A stretch of 64,000 nt of DNA from Escherichia coli (lineage in GTDB: Bacteria; Pseudomonadota; Gammaproteobacteria; Enterobacterales; Enterobacteriaceae). The first letter of the stretch is position 1. Each line of letters begins with the position of its first letter. The notes below the pieces were generated by a model that had not been told where the DNA came from, did no database searches, and was given only the letters and a program-made list of their open reading frames with translations. This document shows positions 13,354 through 27,810 of this stretch, piece by piece. The position numbers and the translations under genes were made by a program. The stretch lies in NCBI RefSeq assembly GCF_024298765.1, contig NZ_CP101210.1; one strand, written 5' to 3'.

Positions 13354-14358
<1,005 letters not shown>

Positions 14359-14591
14359 TTATTTTGTAGTCTAGCCTTCTGGCCCTGTTACGCAACATCT
14401 CATCACCCCATTACCCTGAAATGATTAATAAAATTCTGTCTAAATTGAATACAAAAAGCAAAATGCTTTTCCATATACAAACCGTGTGAAGTGTTAAATA
14501 GCGTCTATCATTATCAGAATTATCTGATCATATGACGTGGCTTTTTTGCGATCGGATAGCAACAAAAATTGATAAAAATAACGGGATCTCA

Positions 14592-15824
14592 ATGATTACG
14601 CACAACTTCAATACCCTGGACTTACTCACCAGTCCTGTCTGGATCGTTTCGCCCTTTGAGGAACAGTTAATTTATGCCAACAGCGCGGCGCGACTGTTGA
14701 TGCAAGACCTCACGTTTAGTCAGCTACGAACCGGTCCCTATTCCGTCTCCTCACAAAAAGAACTGCCGAAATACCTCTCCGATCTGCAAAACCAACACGA
14801 TATTATCGAAATCCTCACCGTTCAGCGCAATGAAGAGGAAACAGCATTGAGCTGTCGGCTTGTTTTGCGAAAGCTGACAGAAGCAGAACCGGTGATTATT
14901 TTCGAAGGTATCGAAGCACCGGCAACGCTGGGTTTAAAAGCCAGTCGCTCGGCAAATTATCAGCGCAAAAAACAAGGTTTTTATGCGCGCTTTTTTCTGA
15001 CTAACTCTGCACCAATGTTGTTGATTGACCCCTCACGAGATGGCCAAATCGTCGATGCTAACCTCGCCGCGCTCAATTTCTATGGCTATAACCATGAAAC
15101 GATGTGCCAGAAACATACTTGGGAAATAAATATGCTCGGGCGACGCGTCATGCCTATCATGCATGAAATTTCGCATTTACCCGGTGGCCATAAGCCTTTG
15201 AATTTTGTTCATAAACTGGCGGATGGTTCGACTCGTCATGTGCAGACCTATGCCGGTCCGATTGAAATTTATGGCGACAAGCTCATGTTATGTATTGTGC
15301 ATGATATTACTGAGCAAAAACGGCTGGAGGAGCAGCTGGAACATGCTGCCCACCATGACGCGATGACCGGATTACTGAATCGGCGACAGTTTTATCACAT
15401 TACCGAGCCAGGCCAAATGCAGCACCTCGCCATCGCTCAGGATTACAGCTTATTGCTCATCGACACCGATCGTTTTAAACACATTAACGATCTCTATGGG
15501 CATTCTAAAGGTGATGAGGTGTTATGCGCCCTCGCCCGCACCCTCGAAAGTTGCGCTCGCAAAGGCGATTTGGTGTTTCGTTGGGGAGGCGAAGAGTTTG
15601 TCTTATTGCTACCAAGAACCCCACTGGATACCGCGCTTTCGCTGGCTGAAACTATCCGCGTAAGCGTGGCAAAAGTGAGTATTTCGGGCTTACCACGCTT
15701 TACCGTCAGCATTGGTGTGGCGCATCACGAAGGAAATGAAAGCATCGATGAACTGTTTAAACGCGTTGATGATGCTTTGTATCGGGCGAAAAATGATGGA
15801 CGCAACCGCGTGCTGGCGGCATAA
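14592..15824 (+). CDS. dgcM: Diguanylate cyclase DgcM (PAS-PAS-GGDEF)
   Basis: ORF 14532..15824; start preferred at MITHNFNTLDLL (410 aa); GGDEF active site RWGGEEF present. Confidence 0.93.
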   Translation: MITHNFNTLDLLTSPVWIVSPFEEQLIYANSAARLLMQDLTFSQLRTGPYSVSSQKELPKYLSDLQNQHDIIEILTVQRNEEETALSCRLVLRKLTEAEPVIIFEGIEAPATLGLKASRSANYQRKKQGFYARFFLTNSAPMLLIDPSRDGQIVDANLAALNFYGYNHETMCQKHTWEINMLGRRVMPIMHEISHLPGGHKPLNFVHKLADGSTRHVQTYAGPIEIYGDKLMLCIVHDITEQKRLEEQLEHAAHHDAMTGLLNRRQFYHITEPGQMQHLAIAQDYSLLLIDTDRFKHINDLYGHSKGDEVLCALARTLESCARKGDLVFRWGGEEFVLLLPRTPLDTALSLAETIRVSVAKVSISGLPRFTVSIGVAHHEGNESIDELFKRVDDALYRAKNDGRNRVLAA

Positions 15825-15844
15825 GCCGCGGATGCGTCTCGAGA

Positions 15845-16408
15845 TCAACGGCTGCGCTTAGCGTGGCGCTCCCAGTTTTCTTGCTTCGCCTGCGCCGTTT
15901 TACGTAGTGCGACGTAACACGCCCCGCTGCCGCCATGATGCGGTAGCGCGGTGCAATATGCCTGAACATCATCAAATTCGGTCAGCCAGCGCGCCACATA
16001 GCTGCGGACAATATTGGCATGCGATTTATCATCCCGCCCTTTACCATGAATAATCAGCACGTTACGCAAACCATCCGCCATGGCTTGTTGAATGAAACTG
16101 AACATCATTTTGCGGCACTCTTCCACCGGCTGGCGCAAAAGATTCAGGCTCGCCTGTTGCGGATATTTACCACTGCGCAGCTTATCCAGCACCCCATGTT
16201 GCAACCCTTCCCGCCGAAACTCCAGCGGCTGACTTAGCGGGATGATGTCGAGAAATCCGGTGGTGAGGAAATTATCAAGTTGCAGCGTGTCGATACGCTG
16301 CGGCGCACGTTGGTTACGCGTTGGATGCCAGTGGACATCTGTAGCACGTTTCAGCGGCTGGACATCTTCCATGGCGTCAAGAAACAGCGATTTGTCGTCA
16401 AGGTTCAT
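15845..16408 (-). CDS. smrA: Smr-domain DNA endonuclease SmrA
   Basis: 187-aa ORF; Smr domain (LIIHGKGRDDKS...); synteny next to dgcM. Confidence 0.9.
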   Translation of the reverse strand: MNLDDKSLFLDAMEDVQPLKRATDVHWHPTRNQRAPQRIDTLQLDNFLTTGFLDIIPLSQPLEFRREGLQHGVLDKLRSGKYPQQASLNLLRQPVEECRKMMFSFIQQAMADGLRNVLIIHGKGRDDKSHANIVRSYVARWLTEFDDVQAYCTALPHHGGSGACYVALRKTAQAKQENWERHAKRSR

Positions 16409-16602
16409 GTAACCTCCTATGCACCTTCACACGTCGTGATTCAGACGGGTTAATTGTTCATACTTACTGCATCGTTCCCTTCACAGATTGAAACAATACT
16501 CTACTTCATACCTGTGAGTATCTGCGCAGGCGGGGCATTTTATACTAGCCTGTTAGCAGTATCGAACAGTTTAGCCCGAGTTTAATTCAGCACAGGCTCC
16601 GA

Positions 16603-18117
16603 TCAGGATGATTTATTCATAGCAGGAACCAACAAAAATGCGATAAATAACAGACCACTGATTAGCAGAAAGGTATCCGAAAATGCCATAGTTTGCGCCT
16701 CCCTCAGCATCAACTGACTCAATAATTTGGTTGAAGCCAGTATTTCCGATGTCTGGTCACTTCCACTGCGATTAAAAAACAAAGCACTTCTGGAAATGAA
16801 GTCATTCACCGTATGGGGAACAGAAACCATTTTTTCACCCATTCTCGAAAAATGAAAATTAGTTCGATTATTGAGAATAGAGCCACACAGGGCAATACCA
16901 ATCGCGCCCCCAAGATTACGTGTTAAATTAAATACACCAGAGGCTAACTTCAGCCGTTCCTTTGGAATTCCCCCCAGCGTTAATGTTACGATGGGGGCCA
17001 TCGCAAACTGCTGCGAAATCCCTCTAATTGCCTGTGGAAACAGTAACTCCTGCCATCCCCATTCGTGGGTTATAGGGGTAAAAAGATACATTGAAAACAC
17101 AAATCCACCCAGCCCCGCCATCAACAGCCATCGCAGATTTATTTTTTTACTTAACCAGAAGTAAAAGGGAACAGAAAATAACTGGAAAATACCTGTTGTG
17201 CAAACGGCAAAACCTATCTCTTCGGCATTTAATCCGCGAACCTGCCCCAAAAACACAGGTATTAAATATACAGTAGAGAATATCCCAACCCCTCCAGAAA
17301 AAGAAAAAAAACATCCCAGCGTGAAATTTTTATCCTTAAAAGCATGAAGATCCATTATCGGATTGGATATTGTAAGTGTACGCGCAGCAAATAAAATAAA
17401 ACTCACCAATGCCAGAACTGATGTCAGCAAAATAGTATTATCATCCAGCCATCCCCAGCGCGCTCCTTCTTCAAGGGTATATTCCAGACATCCCAGTGTC
17501 ATGGCCAACAGGATAATACTCGGATAATCAGCAACTTTCAGTAAAGAGAGATCAGGTTTATCAAAATTAACCAGAAAAGGAATACTCAAAACTAAATATA
17601 TGCCAGGTAATATATTGATATAAAATAGCCATCGCCAGTCGAGGTTATCAGTGATCCAGCCCCCCAGAGTTGGCCCTAGCGTCGGTGACAGTGAGGCCAG
17701 CGCACTGACTACCGCAGCAGCCAACCCCAACTCTTTACCCTGGTAATAAATAAACGCCGTCGTGAAAACTAAAGGGATCATGGATGCGCCAGCCGCTCCC
17801 TGTAAAGCACGAAACAAAATCATGATCTGAATATTCCATGCAAGTCCACACGCGATACTCATTAAAGTAAATATTCCCGCGGATAGAGTAAAAAGCCAAC
17901 GAGTGGAAAATACCCGTGACAGCCACCCAGAGAGCGGAATAACAATAATCTCAGCAATTAAATAGCTGGTCTGAAGCCAGGCCATTTCGTCTTTACCTGC
18001 GGACAGACCACCACCTATTTCATTTAGGGATGACGATACAATTTGAATATCAAGCTGAGCAATAAATAATCCCATACACATACTGGCGAAAGCAATATGT
18101 TTACGCATAGACATCAT
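16603..18117 (-). CDS. MFS drug efflux transporter, EmrB/QacA (DHA2, 14-TMS) type; not a K-12 gene at this position
   Basis: 504-aa hydrophobic ORF with MFS architecture; start overlaps the stop of the upstream HlyD-family gene by 4 nt (operon). Confidence 0.8.
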   Translation of the reverse strand: MMSMRKHIAFASMCMGLFIAQLDIQIVSSSLNEIGGGLSAGKDEMAWLQTSYLIAEIIVIPLSGWLSRVFSTRWLFTLSAGIFTLMSIACGLAWNIQIMILFRALQGAAGASMIPLVFTTAFIYYQGKELGLAAAVVSALASLSPTLGPTLGGWITDNLDWRWLFYINILPGIYLVLSIPFLVNFDKPDLSLLKVADYPSIILLAMTLGCLEYTLEEGARWGWLDDNTILLTSVLALVSFILFAARTLTISNPIMDLHAFKDKNFTLGCFFSFSGGVGIFSTVYLIPVFLGQVRGLNAEEIGFAVCTTGIFQLFSVPFYFWLSKKINLRWLLMAGLGGFVFSMYLFTPITHEWGWQELLFPQAIRGISQQFAMAPIVTLTLGGIPKERLKLASGVFNLTRNLGGAIGIALCGSILNNRTNFHFSRMGEKMVSVPHTVNDFISRSALFFNRSGSDQTSEILASTKLLSQLMLREAQTMAFSDTFLLISGLLFIAFLLVPAMNKSS

Positions 18118-19145
18118 CTCTCATCGACACTGACGGTGACGGACAGTCCCGGGCGAAGAAGTTGCTTTAATTCCTTTGCGTCGTCAAATGCAATCCGTAC
18201 CGGGACACGCTGAACAATTTTGGTGAAATTGCCAGTGGCATTTTCTATCGGAATCAAGCTGAAACTGGCTCCTGTCGCTGGGGAAAGGCTTTCAATGTGA
18301 CCGTGAAACACTTCCCCTTTGAGAATATCAGCACGGATCTCAGCCTTCATTCCTGGCTTCATTCCCGCTATTTGGTTTTCTTTATAATTTGCATCAACCC
18401 ACAACTCACTGACTGGTACAAGTGAAACTAACGATGTGCCGCCTTCCACCCAACTGCCTGTATGGGCGCTGCGGTTTGCGACAATGCCATCAATCGGCGC
18501 ACGAACAAGGGTATATTCCAGATCCAGTAGTGCCTGAGTCAAAGCGGCCTGAACTTCTTCGATACTCGCACGTACGTTTTCTTCCTGAGCAGATAAAACT
18601 GCCAGCCGTTGCTTCTCCACCAGGAAATCGTTCGCGGCTTTGCGCTCCTTTGCTGCGACCTGCTGGTAGTCAAACCTGGCGTTATCAATAATTTGCTGCG
18701 ATATTGCCGCTGATTGTACGAGTTTTTCATAACGTTCAGTATCTCGCAGGCGCTTTTGCTCCTCATGTTTTACTGCCTGCCATGTTTCACTGGCACTTTG
18801 AATTATCGACTGCTGCATCGTAATAGTGGCTTGAATGCTTTCGAGATTGGCTTTTCTACTTTTTATTTTTGCCTCAAGCCTGGCGACATTTGCACGATAA
18901 TCCCGATCATCGAGACGCAGGATAATATCGCCTTTTTTTACGCTCTGATTATCACGCACCTCTATAGCAGAAATATAACCAGAAACTTTACTTGCCACCG
19001 TGGTAATATTACCACCAATGTAAGCATCATCCGTCGTCTGTATAAATCTTCCTTTGCTTACCCACCAGATAAAAAAGACAACGCCAGCCAAAATAATACC
19101 GATCGCTACTACCCCAATAAGCTGTTTTTTAGAAATTATCATCAC
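18114..19145 (-). CDS. HlyD-family membrane fusion protein (EmrA-like periplasmic adaptor)
   Basis: 343-aa ORF: N-terminal TM anchor (VVAIGIILAGVVFFIWW), long coiled-coil region, C-terminal beta-barrel-like domain; translationally coupled to the MFS gene. Confidence 0.8.
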   Translation of the reverse strand: MMIISKKQLIGVVAIGIILAGVVFFIWWVSKGRFIQTTDDAYIGGNITTVASKVSGYISAIEVRDNQSVKKGDIILRLDDRDYRANVARLEAKIKSRKANLESIQATITMQQSIIQSASETWQAVKHEEQKRLRDTERYEKLVQSAAISQQIIDNARFDYQQVAAKERKAANDFLVEKQRLAVLSAQEENVRASIEEVQAALTQALLDLEYTLVRAPIDGIVANRSAHTGSWVEGGTSLVSLVPVSELWVDANYKENQIAGMKPGMKAEIRADILKGEVFHGHIESLSPATGASFSLIPIENATGNFTKIVQRVPVRIAFDDAKELKQLLRPGLSVTVSVDER

Positions 19146-19500
19146 TCTTTACACCGTATATATCCGGAAACTTGCATTCGCCATATTTAAAATTTAACAT
19201 GGCTTATTTGATGATTTCTGACAAAATACCTACTGTAAATGACAATCACACTGCAACCCAAAGCATCACCAGGGCATCACATTATCGGACTGGATTCGGA
19301 ACATCTGAATGGAGGCACAGTTCCCTGGCATAAACATCTCTATGCCCAGTTGCTTTACCCGGCTGAAGGAGTCGTTCGTGTATGGGCTGGAGAAAGCGTC
19401 TGGCTAGTGCATGCCAGCAGCGCGCTTTGGCTGCCCCCACAAATGCCGCATAAGTTTGTTGCGACAGGCAACGTACTTTTAAAAACCGTACTGGTTTCAG

Positions 19501-19509
19501 AAGCGGAAA
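19501..19509. repeat. Left copy of the 9-bp target site duplication (AAGCGGAAA)
   Basis: Identical 9-mer directly abuts both ends of the IS (19501..19509 and 20567..20575). Confidence 0.9.
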
Positions 19510-20566
19510 GGCTTTGTTGAATAAATCAAATTTCGGGTAAGTCTCCCCCGTAGCGGGTTGTGTTTTCAGGCAATACGCACGCTTTCAGGTATACCTGCTT
19601 TCGTCATTTTGTTCAGCGCTCGTACCAGGGCCATAGCCTCCGCAACCTGACCATCGTAGTCACGCAGCGTCAGTGCCCCCCCGAACAGCTGTTTTACCCG
19701 GTACATCGCCGTTTCCGCTATCGAGCGACGGTTGTAATCTGTTGTCCATTTCCACCGCGCATTACTCCCGGTCATTCGCTGATTAGCCACTGCACGGTTA
19801 CGGTCTGCATATTCACCGGGCCAGTAACCCGCACCTTTTCGGGGAGGGATAAGCGCGCTGATTTTCTTACGCCGCAGTTCATCGTGACATAGCCGGGTAT
19901 CGTAAGCGCCATCGGCGGCGGCTGACCTGATTTTCCGGTGGGTTTGCCGGATTAACCCGGGGAAGGCCTCTGAGTCCGTAACGTTGTTCAGCGACAGGTC
20001 TGCACAGATGATTTCATGTGTTTTACTGTCAACGGCGAGATGCAGCTTACGCCAGATACGGCGGCGTTCCTGGCCATGCTTTTTGACTTTCCACTCGCCT
20101 TCACCGAAGACCTTCAGCCCGGTGGAATCAATCACCAGATGTGCGATTTCACCCCGGGTGGGCGTTTTGAAACTGACATTAACCGACTTTGCCCGCCTGC
20201 TGACACAGCTGTAATCCGGGCAGCGTAGCGGAACGTTCATCAGAGAAAAAATGGAATCAATAAAGCCCTGCGCAGCGCGCAGGGTCAGCCTGAATACGCG
20301 TTTAATGACCAGCACAGTCGTGATGGCAAGGTCAGAATAGCGCTGAGGTCTGCCTCGTGAAGAAGGTGTTGCTGACTCATACCAGGCCTGAATAGCTTCA
20401 TCATCCAGCCAGAAAGTTATGGAGCCACGGTTGATGAGGGCTTTATTGTAGGTGGGCCAGTTGGTGATTTTGAACTTTTGCTTTGCCACGGAACGGTCTG
20501 CGTTGTCGGGAAGATACGTGATCTGATCCTTCAACTCAGCAAAAGTTCGATTTATTCAACAAAGCC
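19510..20566 (-). mobile_element. IS903-like insertion sequence (IS5 family, IS903 group), 1057 bp
   Basis: Terminal 18-bp inverted repeats GGCTTTGTTGAATAAATC at 19510..19527 and, inverted, at 20549..20566; right end matches the remembered IS903 end GGCTTTGTTGAATAAATCGAACTTTTGCTGAGTTGAAGGATCAGATC; single transposase ORF; flanked by 9-bp direct repeats. Confidence 0.92.
19566..20534 (-). CDS. IS903-family DDE transposase
   Basis: 322-aa ORF (true start may be internal) resembling the remembered IS903 transposase (e.g. GRPQRYSDLAI..., WRKLHLAVD...THEIICADLSLNNVTD...); transcribed toward the HlyD/MFS genes. Confidence 0.9.
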   Translation of the reverse strand: MKDQITYLPDNADRSVAKQKFKITNWPTYNKALINRGSITFWLDDEAIQAWYESATPSSRGRPQRYSDLAITTVLVIKRVFRLTLRAAQGFIDSIFSLMNVPLRCPDYSCVSRRAKSVNVSFKTPTRGEIAHLVIDSTGLKVFGEGEWKVKKHGQERRRIWRKLHLAVDSKTHEIICADLSLNNVTDSEAFPGLIRQTHRKIRSAAADGAYDTRLCHDELRRKKISALIPPRKGAGYWPGEYADRNRAVANQRMTGSNARWKWTTDYNRRSIAETAMYRVKQLFGGALTLRDYDGQVAEAMALVRALNKMTKAGIPESVRIA

Positions 20567-20575
20567 AAGCGGAAA
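20567..20575. repeat. Right copy of the 9-bp target site duplication (AAGCGGAAA)
   Basis: See left copy. Confidence 0.9.
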
Positions 20576-21190
20576 GTGAAACGCTGGGAAAAGTTTGCTT
20601 CATGACGGGTATTTCACCCCTGTTAAGAGAATTACTAATTGCAATTAACCAACTTCCACCGTCGCAAAGTACCACAGATAAACAACAGTTACGTTTTTCA
20701 GCCCTCGAGACACTGATACTTCAGGAAATAAAAATGGGGGTGAAAATGTCACTTGAACTCCCTTGGCCAAATGATGAGCGGCTACAGCAGCTTTGTGAGA
20801 ATTTGCTAAACAACCAAGGGTATCTGCCAACACTGGATAATCTAGCGGATAAAATTAACGTCAGTAGCCGTACACTCATGCGCTTATTTGTTAAAGAGAC
20901 GGGATTAACATTTCGCCACTGGGTTCAGCAAATGCACGTTATTTCTGCAGTGACGCTTCTTGATGATGGATATTCGTTGACCAAAATTGCCCATCGTCTG
21001 GGCTATGCCTCAGCTGAATCGTTCGGCAATATGTTTAAGCGTCGAACGGGCTACTCGCCCGGTAAATTTACTCGTCGATTAACGATGCATGATTATGCAA
21101 TCACAAGGCAAATGATTTAACTTATATTTTCGTGAAATCTGTCACTGAAGAAAATTGGCAACGGATGGGTAAAACCGTTATAACACTGTC

Positions 21191-21285
21191 ACCGGTCACC
21201 AGGACCCCAGGCCGGATTTAAGACGAGGATGCACTGCTGTGTGTACTGTAGAGTCTGGCGGATGTCGACAGGCTCTATTTTTTTA
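21191..21285 (+). ncRNA. mcaS: McaS (IsrA) sRNA, CsrA-binding regulator of motility and biofilm
   Basis: ACCGGTCACCAGGACCCCAGGCCGGATTTAAGACGAGGATGCACTGCTGTGTGTACTGTAGAGTCTGGCGGATGTCGACAGGCTCTATTTTTTT matches remembered McaS core with GGA motifs and intrinsic terminator; from memory, so the 5' boundary is approximate. Confidence 0.65.
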
Positions 21286-21663
21286 TTCATTTTTTAGCTC
21301 TGTAAATAACCACATTCTCGCCGGGATTGGGGAATGAGTGACGAGATCAGTGGTGTCTGGCGGCTATCACGCCACAGAATCAAATAACAGATAGCCTACG
21401 GTAAAATTTCGCTGACTGGAATTATCCCACCCTCGATCCATGTGATGGCTTGCCCTCATTTCTTCAGGCAGAAAAATCAAAAAATCGCTTTATGCTATCA
21501 GACTGCGACAAACCAGACGCGAAACTGGGTACTTACTATTCGTTAGTCTTGCCCTATCCGCTTATCTTTTTGGTGGTATGGCTGCTGATGTTGCTGGCGT
21601 GGTATCTTGTTGGTCTGCCGATAGGTCCGGGGATTTACCCACGTTTGTCTTAAGAGAGAACGG

Positions 21664-22179
21664 ATGCTGAGATTACTTGAAGAAAAAATTGCCACGCCAC
21701 TGGGTCCACTATGGGTGATTTGCGATGAGCAATTTCGCCTGCGGGCGGTTGAATGGGAAGAGTACAGCGAACGCATGGTGCAGCTGCTGGACATCCATTA
21801 TCGCAAAGAAGGCTATGAGCGCATTTCTGCCGCCAACCCAGGTGGTTTAAGCGACAAGCTTCGTGAATATTTTGCCGGTAATCTTAGCATTATTGATACG
21901 CTTCCCACTGCCACGGGGGGGACGCCATTTCAGCGCGAAGTCTGGAAAACACTGCGCACCATCCCCTGCGGGCAGGTAATGCATTATGGCCAACTGGCTG
22001 AACAATTAGGCCGCCCTGGCGCAGCGCGTGCCGTAGGTGCGGCAAATGGATCGAATCCCATCAGCATCGTCGTACCTTGCCATCGGGTTATTGGCCGAAA
22101 CGGCACCATGACCGGATATGCAGGCGGAGTTCAGCGAAAAGAGTGGTTATTGCGCCACGAAGGTTATCTTTTGCTGTAA
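21664..22179 (+). CDS. ogt: O6-alkylguanine-DNA alkyltransferase
   Basis: 171-aa ORF; active-site motif PCHRV. Confidence 0.95.
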
Positions 22180-22340
22180 ACATTAAACAATTTGTGCCAG
22201 CTTGTTCACACTTTTATATAAAGTTACCCTTAACAACTTAAGGGTTTTCAAATAGATAGACATATATTTACATCTAATATCGGAATTCTCTGCTGTTAAG
22301 GTTTGCTTAGACTTACTTGCTCCCTAAAAAGATGTTAAAA

Positions 22341-22354
22341 TTGACAAATATCAA
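22341..22354 (+). promoter_or_regulatory. FNR box at the fnr promoter (autoregulation)
   Basis: TTGACaaatATCAA, near-perfect FNR consensus, about 20 bp upstream of the fnr start codon. Confidence 0.75.
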
Positions 22355-22373
22355 TTACGGCTTGAGCAGACCT

Positions 22374-23126
22374 ATGATCCCGGAAAAGCGAATTATACGG
22401 CGCATTCAGTCTGGCGGTTGTGCTATCCATTGCCAGGATTGCAGCATCAGCCAGCTTTGCATCCCGTTCACACTCAACGAACATGAGCTTGATCAGCTTG
22501 ATAATATCATTGAGCGGAAGAAGCCTATTCAGAAAGGCCAGACGCTGTTTAAGGCTGGTGATGAACTTAAATCGCTTTATGCCATCCGCTCCGGTACGAT
22601 TAAAAGTTATACCATCACTGAGCAAGGCGACGAGCAAATCACTGGTTTCCATTTAGCAGGCGACCTGGTGGGATTTGACGCCATCGGCAGCGGCCATCAC
22701 CCGAGCTTCGCGCAGGCGCTGGAAACCTCGATGGTATGTGAAATCCCGTTCGAAACGCTGGACGATTTGTCCGGTAAAATGCCGAATCTGCGTCAGCAGA
22801 TGATGCGTCTGATGAGCGGTGAAATCAAAGGCGATCAGGACATGATCCTGCTGTTGTCGAAGAAAAATGCCGAGGAACGTCTGGCTGCATTCATCTACAA
22901 CCTGTCCCGTCGTTTTGCCCAACGCGGCTTCTCCCCTCGTGAATTCCGCCTGACGATGACTCGTGGCGATATTGGTAACTATCTGGGCCTGACGGTAGAA
23001 ACCATCAGCCGTCTGCTGGGTCGCTTCCAGAAAAGCGGTATGCTGGCAGTCAAAGGTAAATACATCACCATCGAAAATAACGATGCGCTGGCCCAGCTTG
23101 CTGGTCATACGCGTAACGTTGCCTGA
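22374..23126 (+). CDS. fnr: Anaerobic global regulator FNR (CRP/FNR family)
   Basis: ORF 22317..23126; start preferred at [29 protein letters not shown] (250 aa); N-terminal Cys cluster and C-terminal HTH. Confidence 0.96.
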
Positions 23127-23277
23127 TTTTTCCGCATAACTCACTATCCTTCTGTCATATCATTAAATTTTTCTGATTTATTGATCTGGCAGAAGGTTCA
23201 TCACTGTTTCATTCACCAGATATGGGTTAATCTTTTAATTACAAACTGCGTTGACAGTTGTTGTAAGGAGACCCTGT

Positions 23278-24228
23278 ATGGCTATGTATCAGAACATGCT
23301 CGTTGTTATCGATCCTAACCAGGACGACCAACCAGCATTGCGGCGAGCTGTTTATTTACATCAACGGATTGGTGGCAAAATTAAAGCCTTTTTGCCGATC
23401 TATGACTTCTCATACGAAATGACCACCCTGCTCTCTCCGGACGAACGTACCGCTATGCGTCAGGGCGTCATCAGCCAGCGTACAGCCTGGATCCACGAGC
23501 AGGCAAAATATTATCTCAATGCTGGCGTTCCCATTGAAATTAAAGTGGTCTGGCATAACCGTCCTTTCGAAGCCATCATTCAGGAAGTGATCAGCGGCGG
23601 GCACGATTTGGTGCTAAAAATGGCGCACCAACATGACCGTCTGGAAGCGGTGATTTTTACGCCAACGGACTGGCATCTGTTACGCAAATGCCCAAGCCCG
23701 GTGTGGATGGTGAAAGACCAGCCGTGGCCGGAAGGGGGTAAGGCGCTGGTGGCGGTGAATCTCGCCAGTGAAGAGCCGTATCATAATGCGCTCAATGAAA
23801 AACTGGTCAAAGAGACGATCGAACTGGCGGAACAAGTCAACCATACCGAAGTTCATCTGGTTGGCGCTTATCCGGTAACGCCAATTAATATCGCGATTGA
23901 ACTGCCGGAATTTGATCCGAGCGTTTATAACGATGCCATTCGTGGGCAACATTTGCTGGCAATGAAAGCCCTGCGGCAGAAATTCGGCATTAATGAAAAC
24001 ATGACGCACGTAGAAAAAGGTCTGCCAGAAGAGGTGATTCCTGATTTGGCGGAGCATTTACAGGCGGGGATTGTGGTTCTGGGCACGGTCGGACGCACCG
24101 GTATTTCAGCGGCATTCCTCGGCAACACGGCGGAACAGGTGATTGATCATCTTCGCTGCGACCTGCTGGTCATTAAACCTGACCAGTATCAGACACCCGT
24201 TGAACTGGATGACGAAGAAGACGATTAA
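23278..24228 (+). CDS. uspE: Universal stress protein E (tandem Usp domains)
   Basis: ORF 23251..24228; start preferred at [13 protein letters not shown] (316 aa). Confidence 0.93.
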
Positions 24229-24277
24229 CGACTCTTCAATAACTGACAAGGCCCGAGTTATCGGGCCTATTTTTTAC

Positions 24278-24535
24278 TTACTGCTCTTCGCCGCCAAGAA
24301 AATAAATTCCCAACGGGATTGCCAGCAACACAGTAAAGACCAGGCTATAAACAAAAATCATCGATGACTGAATCACATACATTGATGTCGTCCACTCAGA
24401 CAGCGGAATATTGTACTGTTCTATAACGCCGCCGATGGTCGCGCGAGTCACAACCGACGCCGCAATAATGAAAACCGCCAACAAACCAAAGAGAAATTTC
24501 TTCCCTTTCGCTGACTTCAGTTTCGCCATAATCAT
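24278..24535 (-). CDS. ynaJ: Small inner-membrane protein YnaJ
   Basis: 85-aa ORF with two predicted TM helices; synteny. Confidence 0.85.
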   Translation of the reverse strand: MIMAKLKSAKGKKFLFGLLAVFIIAASVVTRATIGGVIEQYNIPLSEWTTSMYVIQSSMIFVYSLVFTVLLAIPLGIYFLGGEEQ

Positions 24536-24778
24536 GATGTAATCCTTGTGCAGACAAATTTCTTGTTACCTAAACGTAACAATACCATGACATTTCACCG
24601 TTGTCTGCTCTGAAAACCTCACCTCTTAGCTGGATTTACAATCAACGCATTGATTAGTTAGCTAATGTTGCTACTTCCTTCCCTGACTATTGATGATCTG
24701 AATGAATTGTCGCGGTAAAATAGCCCCGCCAGGGGTTTCCGGCATGACGACAATTATCTGGAGGAGCCTGATAAAACA

Positions 24779-25810
24779 ATGATCGCTGAACTGTTTACAA
24801 ATAATGCGCTAAATCTGGTCATTATTTTCGGTAGCTGCGCAGCATTGATTCTGATGAGCTTTTGGTTTCGCCGCGGAAATCGTAAAAGAAAAGGTTTTTT
24901 ATTCCATGCGGTGCAATTTTTAATCTACACCATAATTATCAGTGCTGTTGGTAGCATCATTAATTATGTTATAGAAAACTATAAACTCAAATTTATCACC
25001 CCAGGCGTTATCGATTTTATCTGTACGTCCCTGATTGCGGCTATTCTGACGATTAAGCTATTTCTGCTGATTAATCAGTTTGAAAAACAGCAGATTAAAA
25101 AAGGTCGCGATATCACCAGTGCGCGGATTATGTCGCGTATCATCAAAATCACCATTATTGTGGTGCTTGTTCTGCTTTATGGCGAACATTTCGGCATGAG
25201 CCTTTCTGGCTTGTTGACCTTTGGTGGTATTGGTGGTCTGGCTGTCGGTATGGCCGGTAAAGATATTCTGAGTAACTTCTTTTCCGGGATTATGCTCTAT
25301 TTCGACCGTCCTTTTAGTATTGGCGACTGGATCCGTTCACCGGACAGAAATATCGAAGGTACAGTAGCGGAAATTGGCTGGCGAATTACCAAAATTACGA
25401 CCTTTGATAATCGTCCGTTGTACGTACCGAACTCGCTGTTTTCGTCAATCAGCGTAGAAAACCCAGGACGAATGACCAACCGGCGCATTACCACGACCAT
25501 TGGTTTACGTTATGAGGATGCGGCAAAAGTGGGCGTTATTGTCGAAGCCGTACGTGAGATGCTGAAAAATCACCCGGCCATCGACCAGCGACAAACCTTA
25601 CTGGTTTATTTCAACCAGTTTGCTGACTCTTCATTGAATATTATGGTTTATTGCTTTACCAAAACCACGGTATGGGCTGAATGGCTTGCTGCACAGCAAG
25701 ACGTTTATTTGAAGATTATCGATATTGTACAGTCACACGGCGCGGACTTTGCCTTCCCCAGCCAGACGCTGTATATGGATAACATTACACCGCCGGACCA
25801 GGGTCGCTAA
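24779..25810 (+). CDS. ynaI: MscS-family low-conductance mechanosensitive channel YnaI
   Basis: 343-aa ORF; N-terminal TM helices followed by an MscS-type domain. Confidence 0.92.
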
Positions 25811-25860
25811 ATCAGACATCACTGGCGTTATCCACAAGGGTAACGCCAGTTCCCATCACA

Positions 25861-27474
25861 TCAATGCTTCACAATATACATAGTCCGACTGTACGCCACA
25901 TCTTCCGGGTTATTAATGGGATAACCTTTCAGCCACGGCTTGATTAATCGTCCATTGGTATATTGATAAATTGGTGCAATCGGTGCTTGCTCCATGAGGA
26001 TTTTTTCTGCCGCATTGTAATCGGCATTACGCGCTTTAACGGTATTTTCCGTTGATGCCTGGGCCAGTACTTTGTCGTATGCCGGATTGTTAAAGCGTGA
26101 AATATTTCCTGAATGCGTTGACGTTAATAATGTCAGGAAAGTGGAGGGTTCATTATAATCCCCTACCCACGAGGCTCGGATAACATCAAAATTGCCGGTG
26201 TTACGGCTATCGATATAGGTTTTCCATTCCTGATTTTGCAATTTAACATCTAAGCCAAGGTTCTTTTTCCACATTGATGCTACAGCAATCGCAATTTTTT
26301 GATGGTTTTCTGAAGTGTTATACAAAAGCGTCAGCTTCAGCGGTTTTTGCGGACCATAACCAGCTGCGCTCAACAAAGTTTTTGCCTGCGCATTCAGTTC
26401 TTCCTGACTCATTTGTTCAAACGGCGAAGGTTCCGGCGTAAATCCTGCAGTAACATCTGGTGTAAAATGCCACGCTGGCTTTTCGCCCGTTCCCAACACT
26501 TTTTCGGTCATCAGGCGGCGATCTATCGTCATACTTAATGCCAGGCGAACACGCTGATCGGCCGTCGGCCCTTTTTGCGTGTTAAACGCATAATAATAGG
26601 TCCCGAGCTGTGGCGGCGTATAAACCTGCCCCGGAATATCCTTCAACAGCTTCTGATACATATTTTTCGGGAAGGATTCGGTGATATCAATATCCCCCGC
26701 GAGATAACGCTTAGTGGCTGCGGATTCCTGATTAATTGGCAGGAAGGTCACTTTTTGCAGCACCGTTTTGGCGTTATCCCAATAATGGGTATTCGGTACC
26801 ACGACCAGTTTTTCATTGACTACGCGCTCTTTAAGAACATAAGCGCCATTACCGATCAGATTTCCGGGTTTCGTCCACTCTTTACTGCTTTCTACGTTGG
26901 CTTTTTGCACCGGGAAGAAGGCAAAGTTAGCGGTTAAATTCACAAACCACGGCAACGGTTTATCAAGCTGGATTTTCAAAGTTTGGGCATCAACTGCGGT
27001 GACGCCAAGCTGGTCAGGCGCGGCTTTACCATCAATAATCGCCTGTGCGTTGTTGATTCCCGCCAGCGCGGCAAACCATGCAAATGGCGACAATGTTTTT
27101 GGGTCCACCAGACGTTGCCAGCTGTAGACAAAATCTTGCGCCGTTACCGGTGTGCCATCCGCCCATTTTGCGTTATCGCGCAGGGTAAAAGTCCAGATAC
27201 GGTTGTCATTACTTTTCCACTGAGTCGCAACGCCGGGGACAATCTCCCCTTTCTCGTTCTGATTCACCAGTCCTTCAAACAGATCGCGAATGACCTGAAT
27301 CTCTGGCAGGCCCACGGCTTTAGCGGGATCCAGCGACGCAGGCTCATCTTTAATGTGGCGCACCAGCTCCTGCTTCTCTGCCAGTACTGTGCCGCTCGGA
27401 ACTTCAGCAGCATACGAAAGAGAAATGCTGCTGACCAACAGCGCACAACACGTGACTGAAACAGAGTGCTTCAT
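25861..27474 (-). CDS. mppA: Periplasmic murein tripeptide-binding protein MppA (oligopeptide SBP family 5)
   Basis: ORF 25861..27495; start preferred at MKHSVSVTCCALLVSSISLSYA (signal peptide), 537 aa. Confidence 0.94.
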   Translation of the reverse strand: MKHSVSVTCCALLVSSISLSYAAEVPSGTVLAEKQELVRHIKDEPASLDPAKAVGLPEIQVIRDLFEGLVNQNEKGEIVPGVATQWKSNDNRIWTFTLRDNAKWADGTPVTAQDFVYSWQRLVDPKTLSPFAWFAALAGINNAQAIIDGKAAPDQLGVTAVDAQTLKIQLDKPLPWFVNLTANFAFFPVQKANVESSKEWTKPGNLIGNGAYVLKERVVNEKLVVVPNTHYWDNAKTVLQKVTFLPINQESAATKRYLAGDIDITESFPKNMYQKLLKDIPGQVYTPPQLGTYYYAFNTQKGPTADQRVRLALSMTIDRRLMTEKVLGTGEKPAWHFTPDVTAGFTPEPSPFEQMSQEELNAQAKTLLSAAGYGPQKPLKLTLLYNTSENHQKIAIAVASMWKKNLGLDVKLQNQEWKTYIDSRNTGNFDVIRASWVGDYNEPSTFLTLLTSTHSGNISRFNNPAYDKVLAQASTENTVKARNADYNAAEKILMEQAPIAPIYQYTNGRLIKPWLKGYPINNPEDVAYSRTMYIVKH

Positions 27475-27532
27475 AAGTTTCCCTCTAACCGACATTAAAA
27501 TTGATGCGTAATTATTTGTTTCGCCTTAAAGA

Positions 27533-27562
27533 AATGCAAACAACTTCCATCAAAAAAGTGAC
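27533..27562. promoter_or_regulatory. Copy A of a conserved 30-nt motif (AAATGCAAACAACTTCCATCAAAAAAGTGA) upstream of mppA
   Basis: Near-identical copy at 30643..30672 upstream of mpaA (28 of 30 positions); function unknown. Confidence 0.5.
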
Positions 27563-27810
27563 AAAGGAAGCATCAAATGTTTTAAGTATCAATATATCAA
27601 ATCAGATTTAGTGTAAATAATAGTCTCCAAAATGCGGTAAAGCACATAGAACTCCGAACACTACGTTCGGGCTTCGCACGTTCAAACCCGTTTTCGGTAT
27701 CATAATCAGCATCTGTCGCCATTGTACGAAGAATAAAAAATAACCAAAACGTTGAAAGGAACTGAGAATACGTTAAGAGAAAAATTAAATTAATGTATCA
27801 GCAAGTAGTG

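Follow-up and report, generated by a model that had tools for sequence, protein, structure and literature searches.

The window analysed here is a stretch of 64,000 nucleotides of Escherichia coli DNA (contig NZ_CP101210.1), in which the small RNA gene mcaS lies shortly before ogt and a short open reading frame (ORF) lies in the gap between them:

21191..21286, plus strand: mcaS (McaS/IsrA small RNA), matching Rfam RF00115 over model positions 1-96 of 96, terminator included
21450..21653, plus strand: ORF of 67 amino acids (plus stop) starting with TTG, from the open-frame list
21664..22179, plus strand: ogt (O6-alkylguanine-DNA alkyltransferase), with Pfam domains PF01035 and PF02870

The RF00115 covariance model scored McaS at 112.8 bits over the full model length, against a gathering score of 42. 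Ogt of the window shared 99.4% amino-acid identity with K-12 Ogt, and its gene, separated from mcaS by 377 nt, was the next intact gene, followed by fnr and uspE. According to the annotation of K-12 MG1655, the order in that strain, read in the orientation of the window, is mcaS, abgR (on the opposite strand), abgA, abgB, abgT and ogt, with about 5.4 kb from mcaS to ogt, which agrees with the abgRABT placement that a preliminary description of this locus had given for K-12. That description had also reported a McaS-like small RNA shortly before ogt without abg genes, and this is borne out by the RF00115 match, the 377-nt gap, and tblastn searches with K-12 AbgA, AbgB, AbgT and AbgR, which detected no intact abg gene over the full 64 kb. 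The sole matches to Abg proteins in the window were AbgT residues 462-508 at 21510..21650 and, on the minus strand, AbgR residues 230-302 at 21297..21513.

Nucleotide alignments to K-12 (blastn) placed both matches in a simple arrangement. Window positions 21085..21505 aligned to K-12 1405857..1405436 with 81% identity, spanning the mcaS region and the last 214 nt of abgR, while positions 21505..22300 aligned without gaps to K-12 1400395..1399600 with 97.5% identity, spanning the last 149 nt of abgT and ogt. These two alignments overlap by a single base and together tile the region, and 5040 bp are missing compared to K-12, in whose annotation this interval takes in most of abgR, the whole of abgA and abgB, and about 459 abgT codons:

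21294..21505, minus strand: abgR 3' remnant, a pseudogene, supported by blastn to K-12 1405436..1405649, by tblastn, and by PGAP
21505..21506, no strand: deletion junction, at which K-12 position 1405436 (abgR) is joined to 1400395 (abgT)
21505..21653, plus strand: abgT 3' remnant, a pseudogene, with 97.5% nucleotide identity to K-12, supported by PF03806 and PGAP

The abgR stump comprises about 71 last codons, with the stop codon at 21294..21296 and the C-terminus ...RRECGYLQS* as in AbgR, and it is interrupted by frameshifts and internal stops; tblastn recovered residues 230-248 and 260-302 in two different frames. The N-terminal helix-turn-helix domain of a LysR-type regulator is absent, the frame is broken, and residues ∼230-302 alone are recognisable. 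The abgT stump, in contrast to the decayed abgR side, is well conserved: its 149 nt, with a stop at 21651..21653, encode the final transmembrane helix, and its product is 100% identical in amino acids to K-12 AbgT 462-508 (tblastn). The abgT stop codon lies 10 nt before the ogt ATG in K-12, and the same spacing was found in the window. Two explanations for the junction itself were rejected: deletion mediated by an insertion sequence (IS), given that no IS end was found there, and a CTG microhomology, given that the two K-12 alignments share only one base.

The 67-aa frame with its TTG start and hydrophobic helix is present with exactly the sequence that had been quoted. It is a chimera in which codons 1-18 are antisense to the abgR remnant, codon 19 runs across the junction, and the remainder is the abgT tail. 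Residues 21-64 matched positions 457-500 of 502 of the Pfam ABG_transport profile PF03806 (E 8.7e-14, 51.1 bits, cut-off 27), and the ORF aligned to the C-terminal helix of the AbgT-family structures 4r1i (MtrF) and 4r0c (YdaH). While the length of the ORF by itself is within chance, as 61 ORFs of 30 aa or longer overlap a 5.5-kb part of this region, its match to ABG_transport is far beyond chance. The full-length AbgT body of about 500 residues with multiple helices is missing, with residues 462-508 of 508 alone present. Given that the frame upstream of 21505 is antisense abgR and that only these residues are left, the ORF is a gene fragment and not a member of the AbgT protein family. Of the two identities that had been suggested for it, a remnant of the abgT 3' end is the correct one, with 97.5% nucleotide identity to K-12 and 100% amino-acid identity to AbgT 462-508. 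The comparisons proposed alongside that suggestion gave a gap-free match from 21505 when the gap was aligned to the K-12 abgT 3' end and ogt upstream region, and a match to AbgT 462-508 with 100% identity when TBLASTN was run against the AbgT C-terminus. An equal mcaS-ogt spacing in K-12 and an ORF dissimilar to AbgT had been named as observations that would speak against the proposal; K-12 has about 5.4 kb at this place, and the ORF does resemble AbgT. What the preliminary description had overlooked is that an abgR 3' remnant makes up the left half of the gap, that the abgT remnant coincides with the ogt promoter, and that the configuration is common and already annotated.

We consider it highly probable (about 0.93) that the mcaS-ogt gap is the scar of an abgR-abgA-abgB-abgT deletion, that the abgT stump doubles as the ogt promoter, and that the ORF is a by-product. 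According to this scenario, one old deletion of 5040 bp would have removed abgR codons 1 to ∼231, abgA, abgB, and abgT codons 1 to ∼459, and would have left two stumps fused at 21505/21506, an abgR stump on the minus strand that has been decaying and an abgT stump on the plus strand that has been conserved. The abgT frame by chance stays open for 18 codons into antisense abgR, back to a TTG, which generates the 67-aa ORF.

The NarL-activated and Fis-repressed ogt promoter of K-12 was attributed to Squire et al. (2009) as cited by Ruanto et al. (2020; PMC7419079), and we took the promoter elements from Figs 1A and S3-S5 of the latter study, in which the -10 hexamer TATCTT was verified by mutation. 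The +1 position was taken from Fig S5, and NarL site positions in the window were computed from the -10 element and +1:

21530..21545, plus strand: NarL I, a 7-2-7 site (TACTTACTATTCGTTA) centred at -77.5, identical to the K-12 site in PMC7419079
21563..21578, plus strand: NarL II, a 7-2-7 site (TATCTTTTTGGTGGTA) centred at -44.5, identical to the K-12 site in PMC7419079
21600..21608, plus strand: extended -10 element, TGgTATCTT, identical to K-12 (PMC7419079)
21615, plus strand: inferred ogt transcript start (C), transferred from K-12 (Fig S5 of PMC7419079)

The window sequence contains all elements of the published promoter, that is, tandem 7-2-7 sites at -77.5 and -44.5 and an extended -10 element of the form TGnTATCTT, and the leader from +1 to the ogt ATG measures 49 nt. 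The promoter fragment depicted in PMC7419079 covers -105..+1, and the junction, at -110, falls just outside it on the upstream side. Between the junction and the ogt ATG, substitutions relative to K-12 were found at 21507, 21560, 21611, and 21632 only, all outside promoter elements. Judging from this sequence agreement, the abgT stump probably carries the ogt promoter in this strain. The window does not have the spacer deletion that was described for some strains in PMC7419079. We observed a 12-bp deletion relative to window 21551..21562 in B2-type E. coli, which corresponds to the "∼10 bp deletion" of that study, and K-12-like promoter spacing is kept in the window, in JJ1886, and in the S. 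flexneri product. Additional small length variants occur nearby: the Nissle/GABEEC132 type has a further 19-bp deletion in the abgR stump (window 21425..21443), and E. coli E69 (CP089930.1) has a 7-nt duplication, CTTAAGC, between the abgT stop and the ogt ribosome-binding region. The E69 lineage is a separate species representative in the GTDB collection and has the same junction as the window.

The other identity that had been suggested for the ORF, a small membrane protein, is not supported: codons 1-18 derive from antisense abgR, a Shine-Dalgarno sequence is missing from both candidate starts, and no start is conserved in other lineages. A functional version of this proposal would have the AbgT C-terminal helix domesticated with a new N-terminus and translated from TTG 21450 or ATG 21492 on mcaS read-through transcripts, as a small membrane protein co-opted in abg-less E. 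coli and Shigella lineages. If true, such co-option would explain why all sampled deletion alleles have kept the frame open. The ORF was intact in 8/8 sampled deletion alleles of the E. coli/Shigella type, including that of the divergent E69; the 12-bp deletion of ST73/ST95-type strains keeps the frame; the product would have a single strongly hydrophobic helix; and gene callers predict the ORF in hundreds of contigs. However, calculated Shine-Dalgarno pairing was +0.3 kcal/mol for TTG 21450 and +1.9 kcal/mol for the in-frame ATG 21492, compared to -5.4 kcal/mol for ogt and a median of -1.7 kcal/mol at random window positions. A search for a promoter-like site on the plus strand between the mcaS terminator and the ORF returned none, the strong McaS terminator lies directly upstream, and the only mapped promoter fires at 21615, within the 3' end of the ORF. 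The combination of start codon, ribosome-binding site, and transcript that would make a usable start for a small membrane protein was not found.

Variation among alleles also argues against a protein-coding role. The novel N-terminus varies (RFMLSD, RLILSD, RFMLKY, RFMLPD), the internal ATG is lost in ST131 JJ1886, and deposited variants carry L->Q and L->S replacements in the helix as well as a stop-loss. The other Escherichia species with abg remnants (E. albertii, E. whittamii, and Escherichia sp. E1V33) keep the DNA, yet the frame is broken or startless in them, with the E. albertii open frame having no start before codon 21. Conservation follows the promoter elements instead. We estimate that the ORF would be open by chance in the sampled E. 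coli alleles with a probability of ∼15%, which makes its openness weak evidence of coding constraint, and substitutions in the ORF among E. coli alleles are few, with the promoter as a confounding influence on them. We regard co-option as a translated small membrane protein as very unlikely. From its sequence context, the ORF is most likely neither specifically transcribed nor translated.

The arrangement is not peculiar to this strain. The same mcaS-ogt architecture was present in 1169-1170 of 5426 complete E. coli genomes, about a fifth, and the junction motif AAAATCGCTTNATNCTNNNNNACTGCGACAAACCAGACG was found in all 11 deletion-type E. coli and Shigella loci that we fetched (strain 104, SMN197SH3, JJ1886 of ST131, FDAARGOS_1300, an APEC strain, GABEEC132, Nissle, E69, and three Shigella flexneri contigs) and in 0/13 other loci. 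In strain 104, PGAP annotates both stumps as pseudogenes, the abgR stump as an incomplete "LysR family transcriptional regulator" with a frameshift and an internal stop, and the abgT stump as an incomplete "AbgT family transporter" that lacks its N-terminus. The exact 67-aa sequence has been deposited on 139 contigs, under the names "pump protein" or "AbgT family transporter, partial". Furthermore, the ogt upstream sequences of APEC O1, E2348/69, and CFT073 in Fig S4 of Ruanto et al. (2020; PMC7419079) begin with the same junction; that study aligned these sequences without mention of abg or its loss. The deletion scar is widespread, ordinary, and already annotated in public resources. We found no paper describing natural abg loss in the literature on abgT/mcaS, abg genes/phylogroup, and McaS/abgR/ydaL.

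These population data refute a strain-specific rearrangement or assembly artefact, arising for example via a nearby IS element, which we consider extremely improbable. An IS903B-like element does lie 0.6 kb upstream of mcaS, in an AraC-family gene, as this explanation would have it, but the junction occurs in ∼1170 complete genomes without this IS insertion, and there is no IS end at the junction. The element, of the IS5 family, occupies 19511..20566, with a transposase ORF at 19566..20534 on the minus strand; it splits the AraC-family regulator gene into 19239..19510 and 20567..21120 and is flanked by duplicated AAGCGGAAAG. An IS at this site of the AraC-family gene was found in 0/5426 complete E. 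coli genomes.

Other variation was observed on the mcaS side of the locus. A three-gene block encoding MFS (DHA2), HlyD-family, and AraC-family proteins (window 16603..21120) lies between smrA and mcaS and is absent from K-12, in which the smrA-mcaS spacer (1405752..1405978) still matches the AraC-family gene over its final ∼35 nt (window 21085..21120). This alignment points to a second deletion scar, in K-12. The first hairpin of McaS (window 21191..21215) has several loop and stem differences, CACCAGGACCCCAGG compared to GCGCAGAGGAGACAATG in K-12, with the GGA motif kept; this hairpin allele travels with the AraC-family block, and Nord122 combines it with an intact abg operon.

We scanned species-representative genomes with the mcaS core motif for mcaS-ogt neighbourhoods, and those of E. 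albertii, E. whittamii, and E1V33 read smrA-mcaS-ogt-fnr and lacked abg genes. The ∼250-nt gaps of these genomes retain abgR and abgT remnants with other breakpoints: on the abgT side, the first retained K-12 position is 1400374 in E. albertii and 1400390 in E. whittamii and E1V33, compared to 1400395 in the window, and the abgR-side fragments also differ from those of the window. NarL I (K-12 1400370..1400355) is kept in all three. Compared to the window, these loci share the synteny and the retained abgT tail with the ogt promoter, and have extra internal deletions. Given that the breakpoints differ between the window, E. albertii, and E. whittamii/E1V33, the abg deletions are independent, and abg was lost at least three times in Escherichia, each time with a deletion stopping upstream of NarL I.

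A multi-species alignment of the region contained invariant blocks at the right half of NarL II and adjoining bases, from -35 to the extended -10, and at the ogt ribosome-binding region, with the extended -10 block invariant in 9/9 aligned sequences. The former abgT frame carries frameshifting indels of +2 nt in E. albertii and -1 nt in E. whittamii and E1V33. Given that invariant columns follow promoter elements and not codon periodicity, and that indels break the frame, the constraint on the abgT stump appears to act at the DNA level and not at the protein level. In Escherichia, the ogt promoter and its 49-nt leader sit within the last ∼110 nt of abgT, so that deletions reaching further would silence ogt. 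It is most likely that the abgT stump has been kept because of the ogt promoter, with selection inferred from three or four independent events. No paper was found stating that abg deletions stop short of the ogt promoter. The Salmonella ogt upstream region (Fig S5 of PMC7419079) can be aligned with the E. coli abgT tail at NarL II and the -10 element, with the shared pattern TATCTTTT..GG.GTATGG.TGC...TG.TATCTTGTC, and may represent a still older abgT relic.

Genomes in which mcaS and ogt lie even closer together bear on the possibility that their adjacency is ancestral, that is, that the lineage of the window never had abg, that K-12 gained abgRABT by insertion, and that the ORF is ancestral intergenic sequence. 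In Citrobacter amalonaticus, Pseudescherichia vulneris, Escherichia sp. ESNIH1, and UBA7338, mcaS is located 50-75 nt from ogt, and blastn detected no abg remnant between the two genes, as this explanation would predict for a site that abg had not reached. Indeed, abg may have entered the mcaS-ogt site in an Escherichia ancestor. However, recognisable abgR and abgT 3' ends are both present in the window, correctly ordered and oriented and meeting at one point, from which follows an internal deletion of a resident abgR...abgT cluster. These two remnants refute the absence of abg throughout the history of the window lineage, and we give this explanation next to no credence.

Deletion of a resident cluster, the reading that we prefer, has a history that the abgR stump makes less simple. 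This stump is ∼76% identical (∼24% diverged) to every intact E. coli abgR examined, whereas identity to K-12 is 97.5% (2.5% divergence) in ogt and in the abgT stump next to it. Many of the abgR-stump differences are silent in the retained frame, and where a short part of abgR is conserved, the remnants of E. albertii and E1V33 agree with the window in bases at which K-12 differs. The ∼24% divergence of the abgR stump far exceeds what simple decay after a recent deletion would produce, and the locus has therefore had a more complex history than one clean deletion in an ancestor resembling K-12. One possibility is that a long-diverged abg allele was the one deleted; another is that the abg genes of present-day abg+ strains were replaced later by recombination. 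The occurrence of the junction in ST131 JJ1886, Nissle, and Shigella flexneri hints at its spread by recombination.

The abg genes, whose products in K-12 take up and cleave p-aminobenzoyl-glutamate, are missing from the strain represented by the window, a loss that this strain has in common with ST131 JJ1886, CFT073, Nissle, and the examined Shigella flexneri contigs. The "pump protein" ORF that has been called in many genomes would be better treated as a pseudogene fragment. Beyond correct annotation the significance of the locus is little, and it illustrates how a promoter within the 3' end of an upstream gene could limit the reach of deletions.

A known locus close to that of the window is found in strain 104 (NZ_CP029164), which has the same two remnants and is 100% identical over window 20567..27700, with one mismatch over 14034..19510. 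The window differs from strain 104 by the added IS903B-like insertion in the neighbouring AraC-family gene; this element aside, the two are the same over 14034..27700 with that single mismatch. In comparison with K-12 abgT (b1336), which encodes a p-aminobenzoyl-glutamate:H+ symporter (PF03806), the window has the orthologous last 149 nt with residues 462-508 identical, whereas only ∼49 of 508 codons are left, the remaining transporter body and any transport function are gone, and further upstream the open frame runs through unrelated sequence antisense to abgR. The K-12 ogt promoter lies within an abgABT operon that is intact and runs in the same direction, whereas in the window the sequence beyond -110 consists of the abgR stump and the mcaS terminator, so that any read-through from the abg operon is lost.
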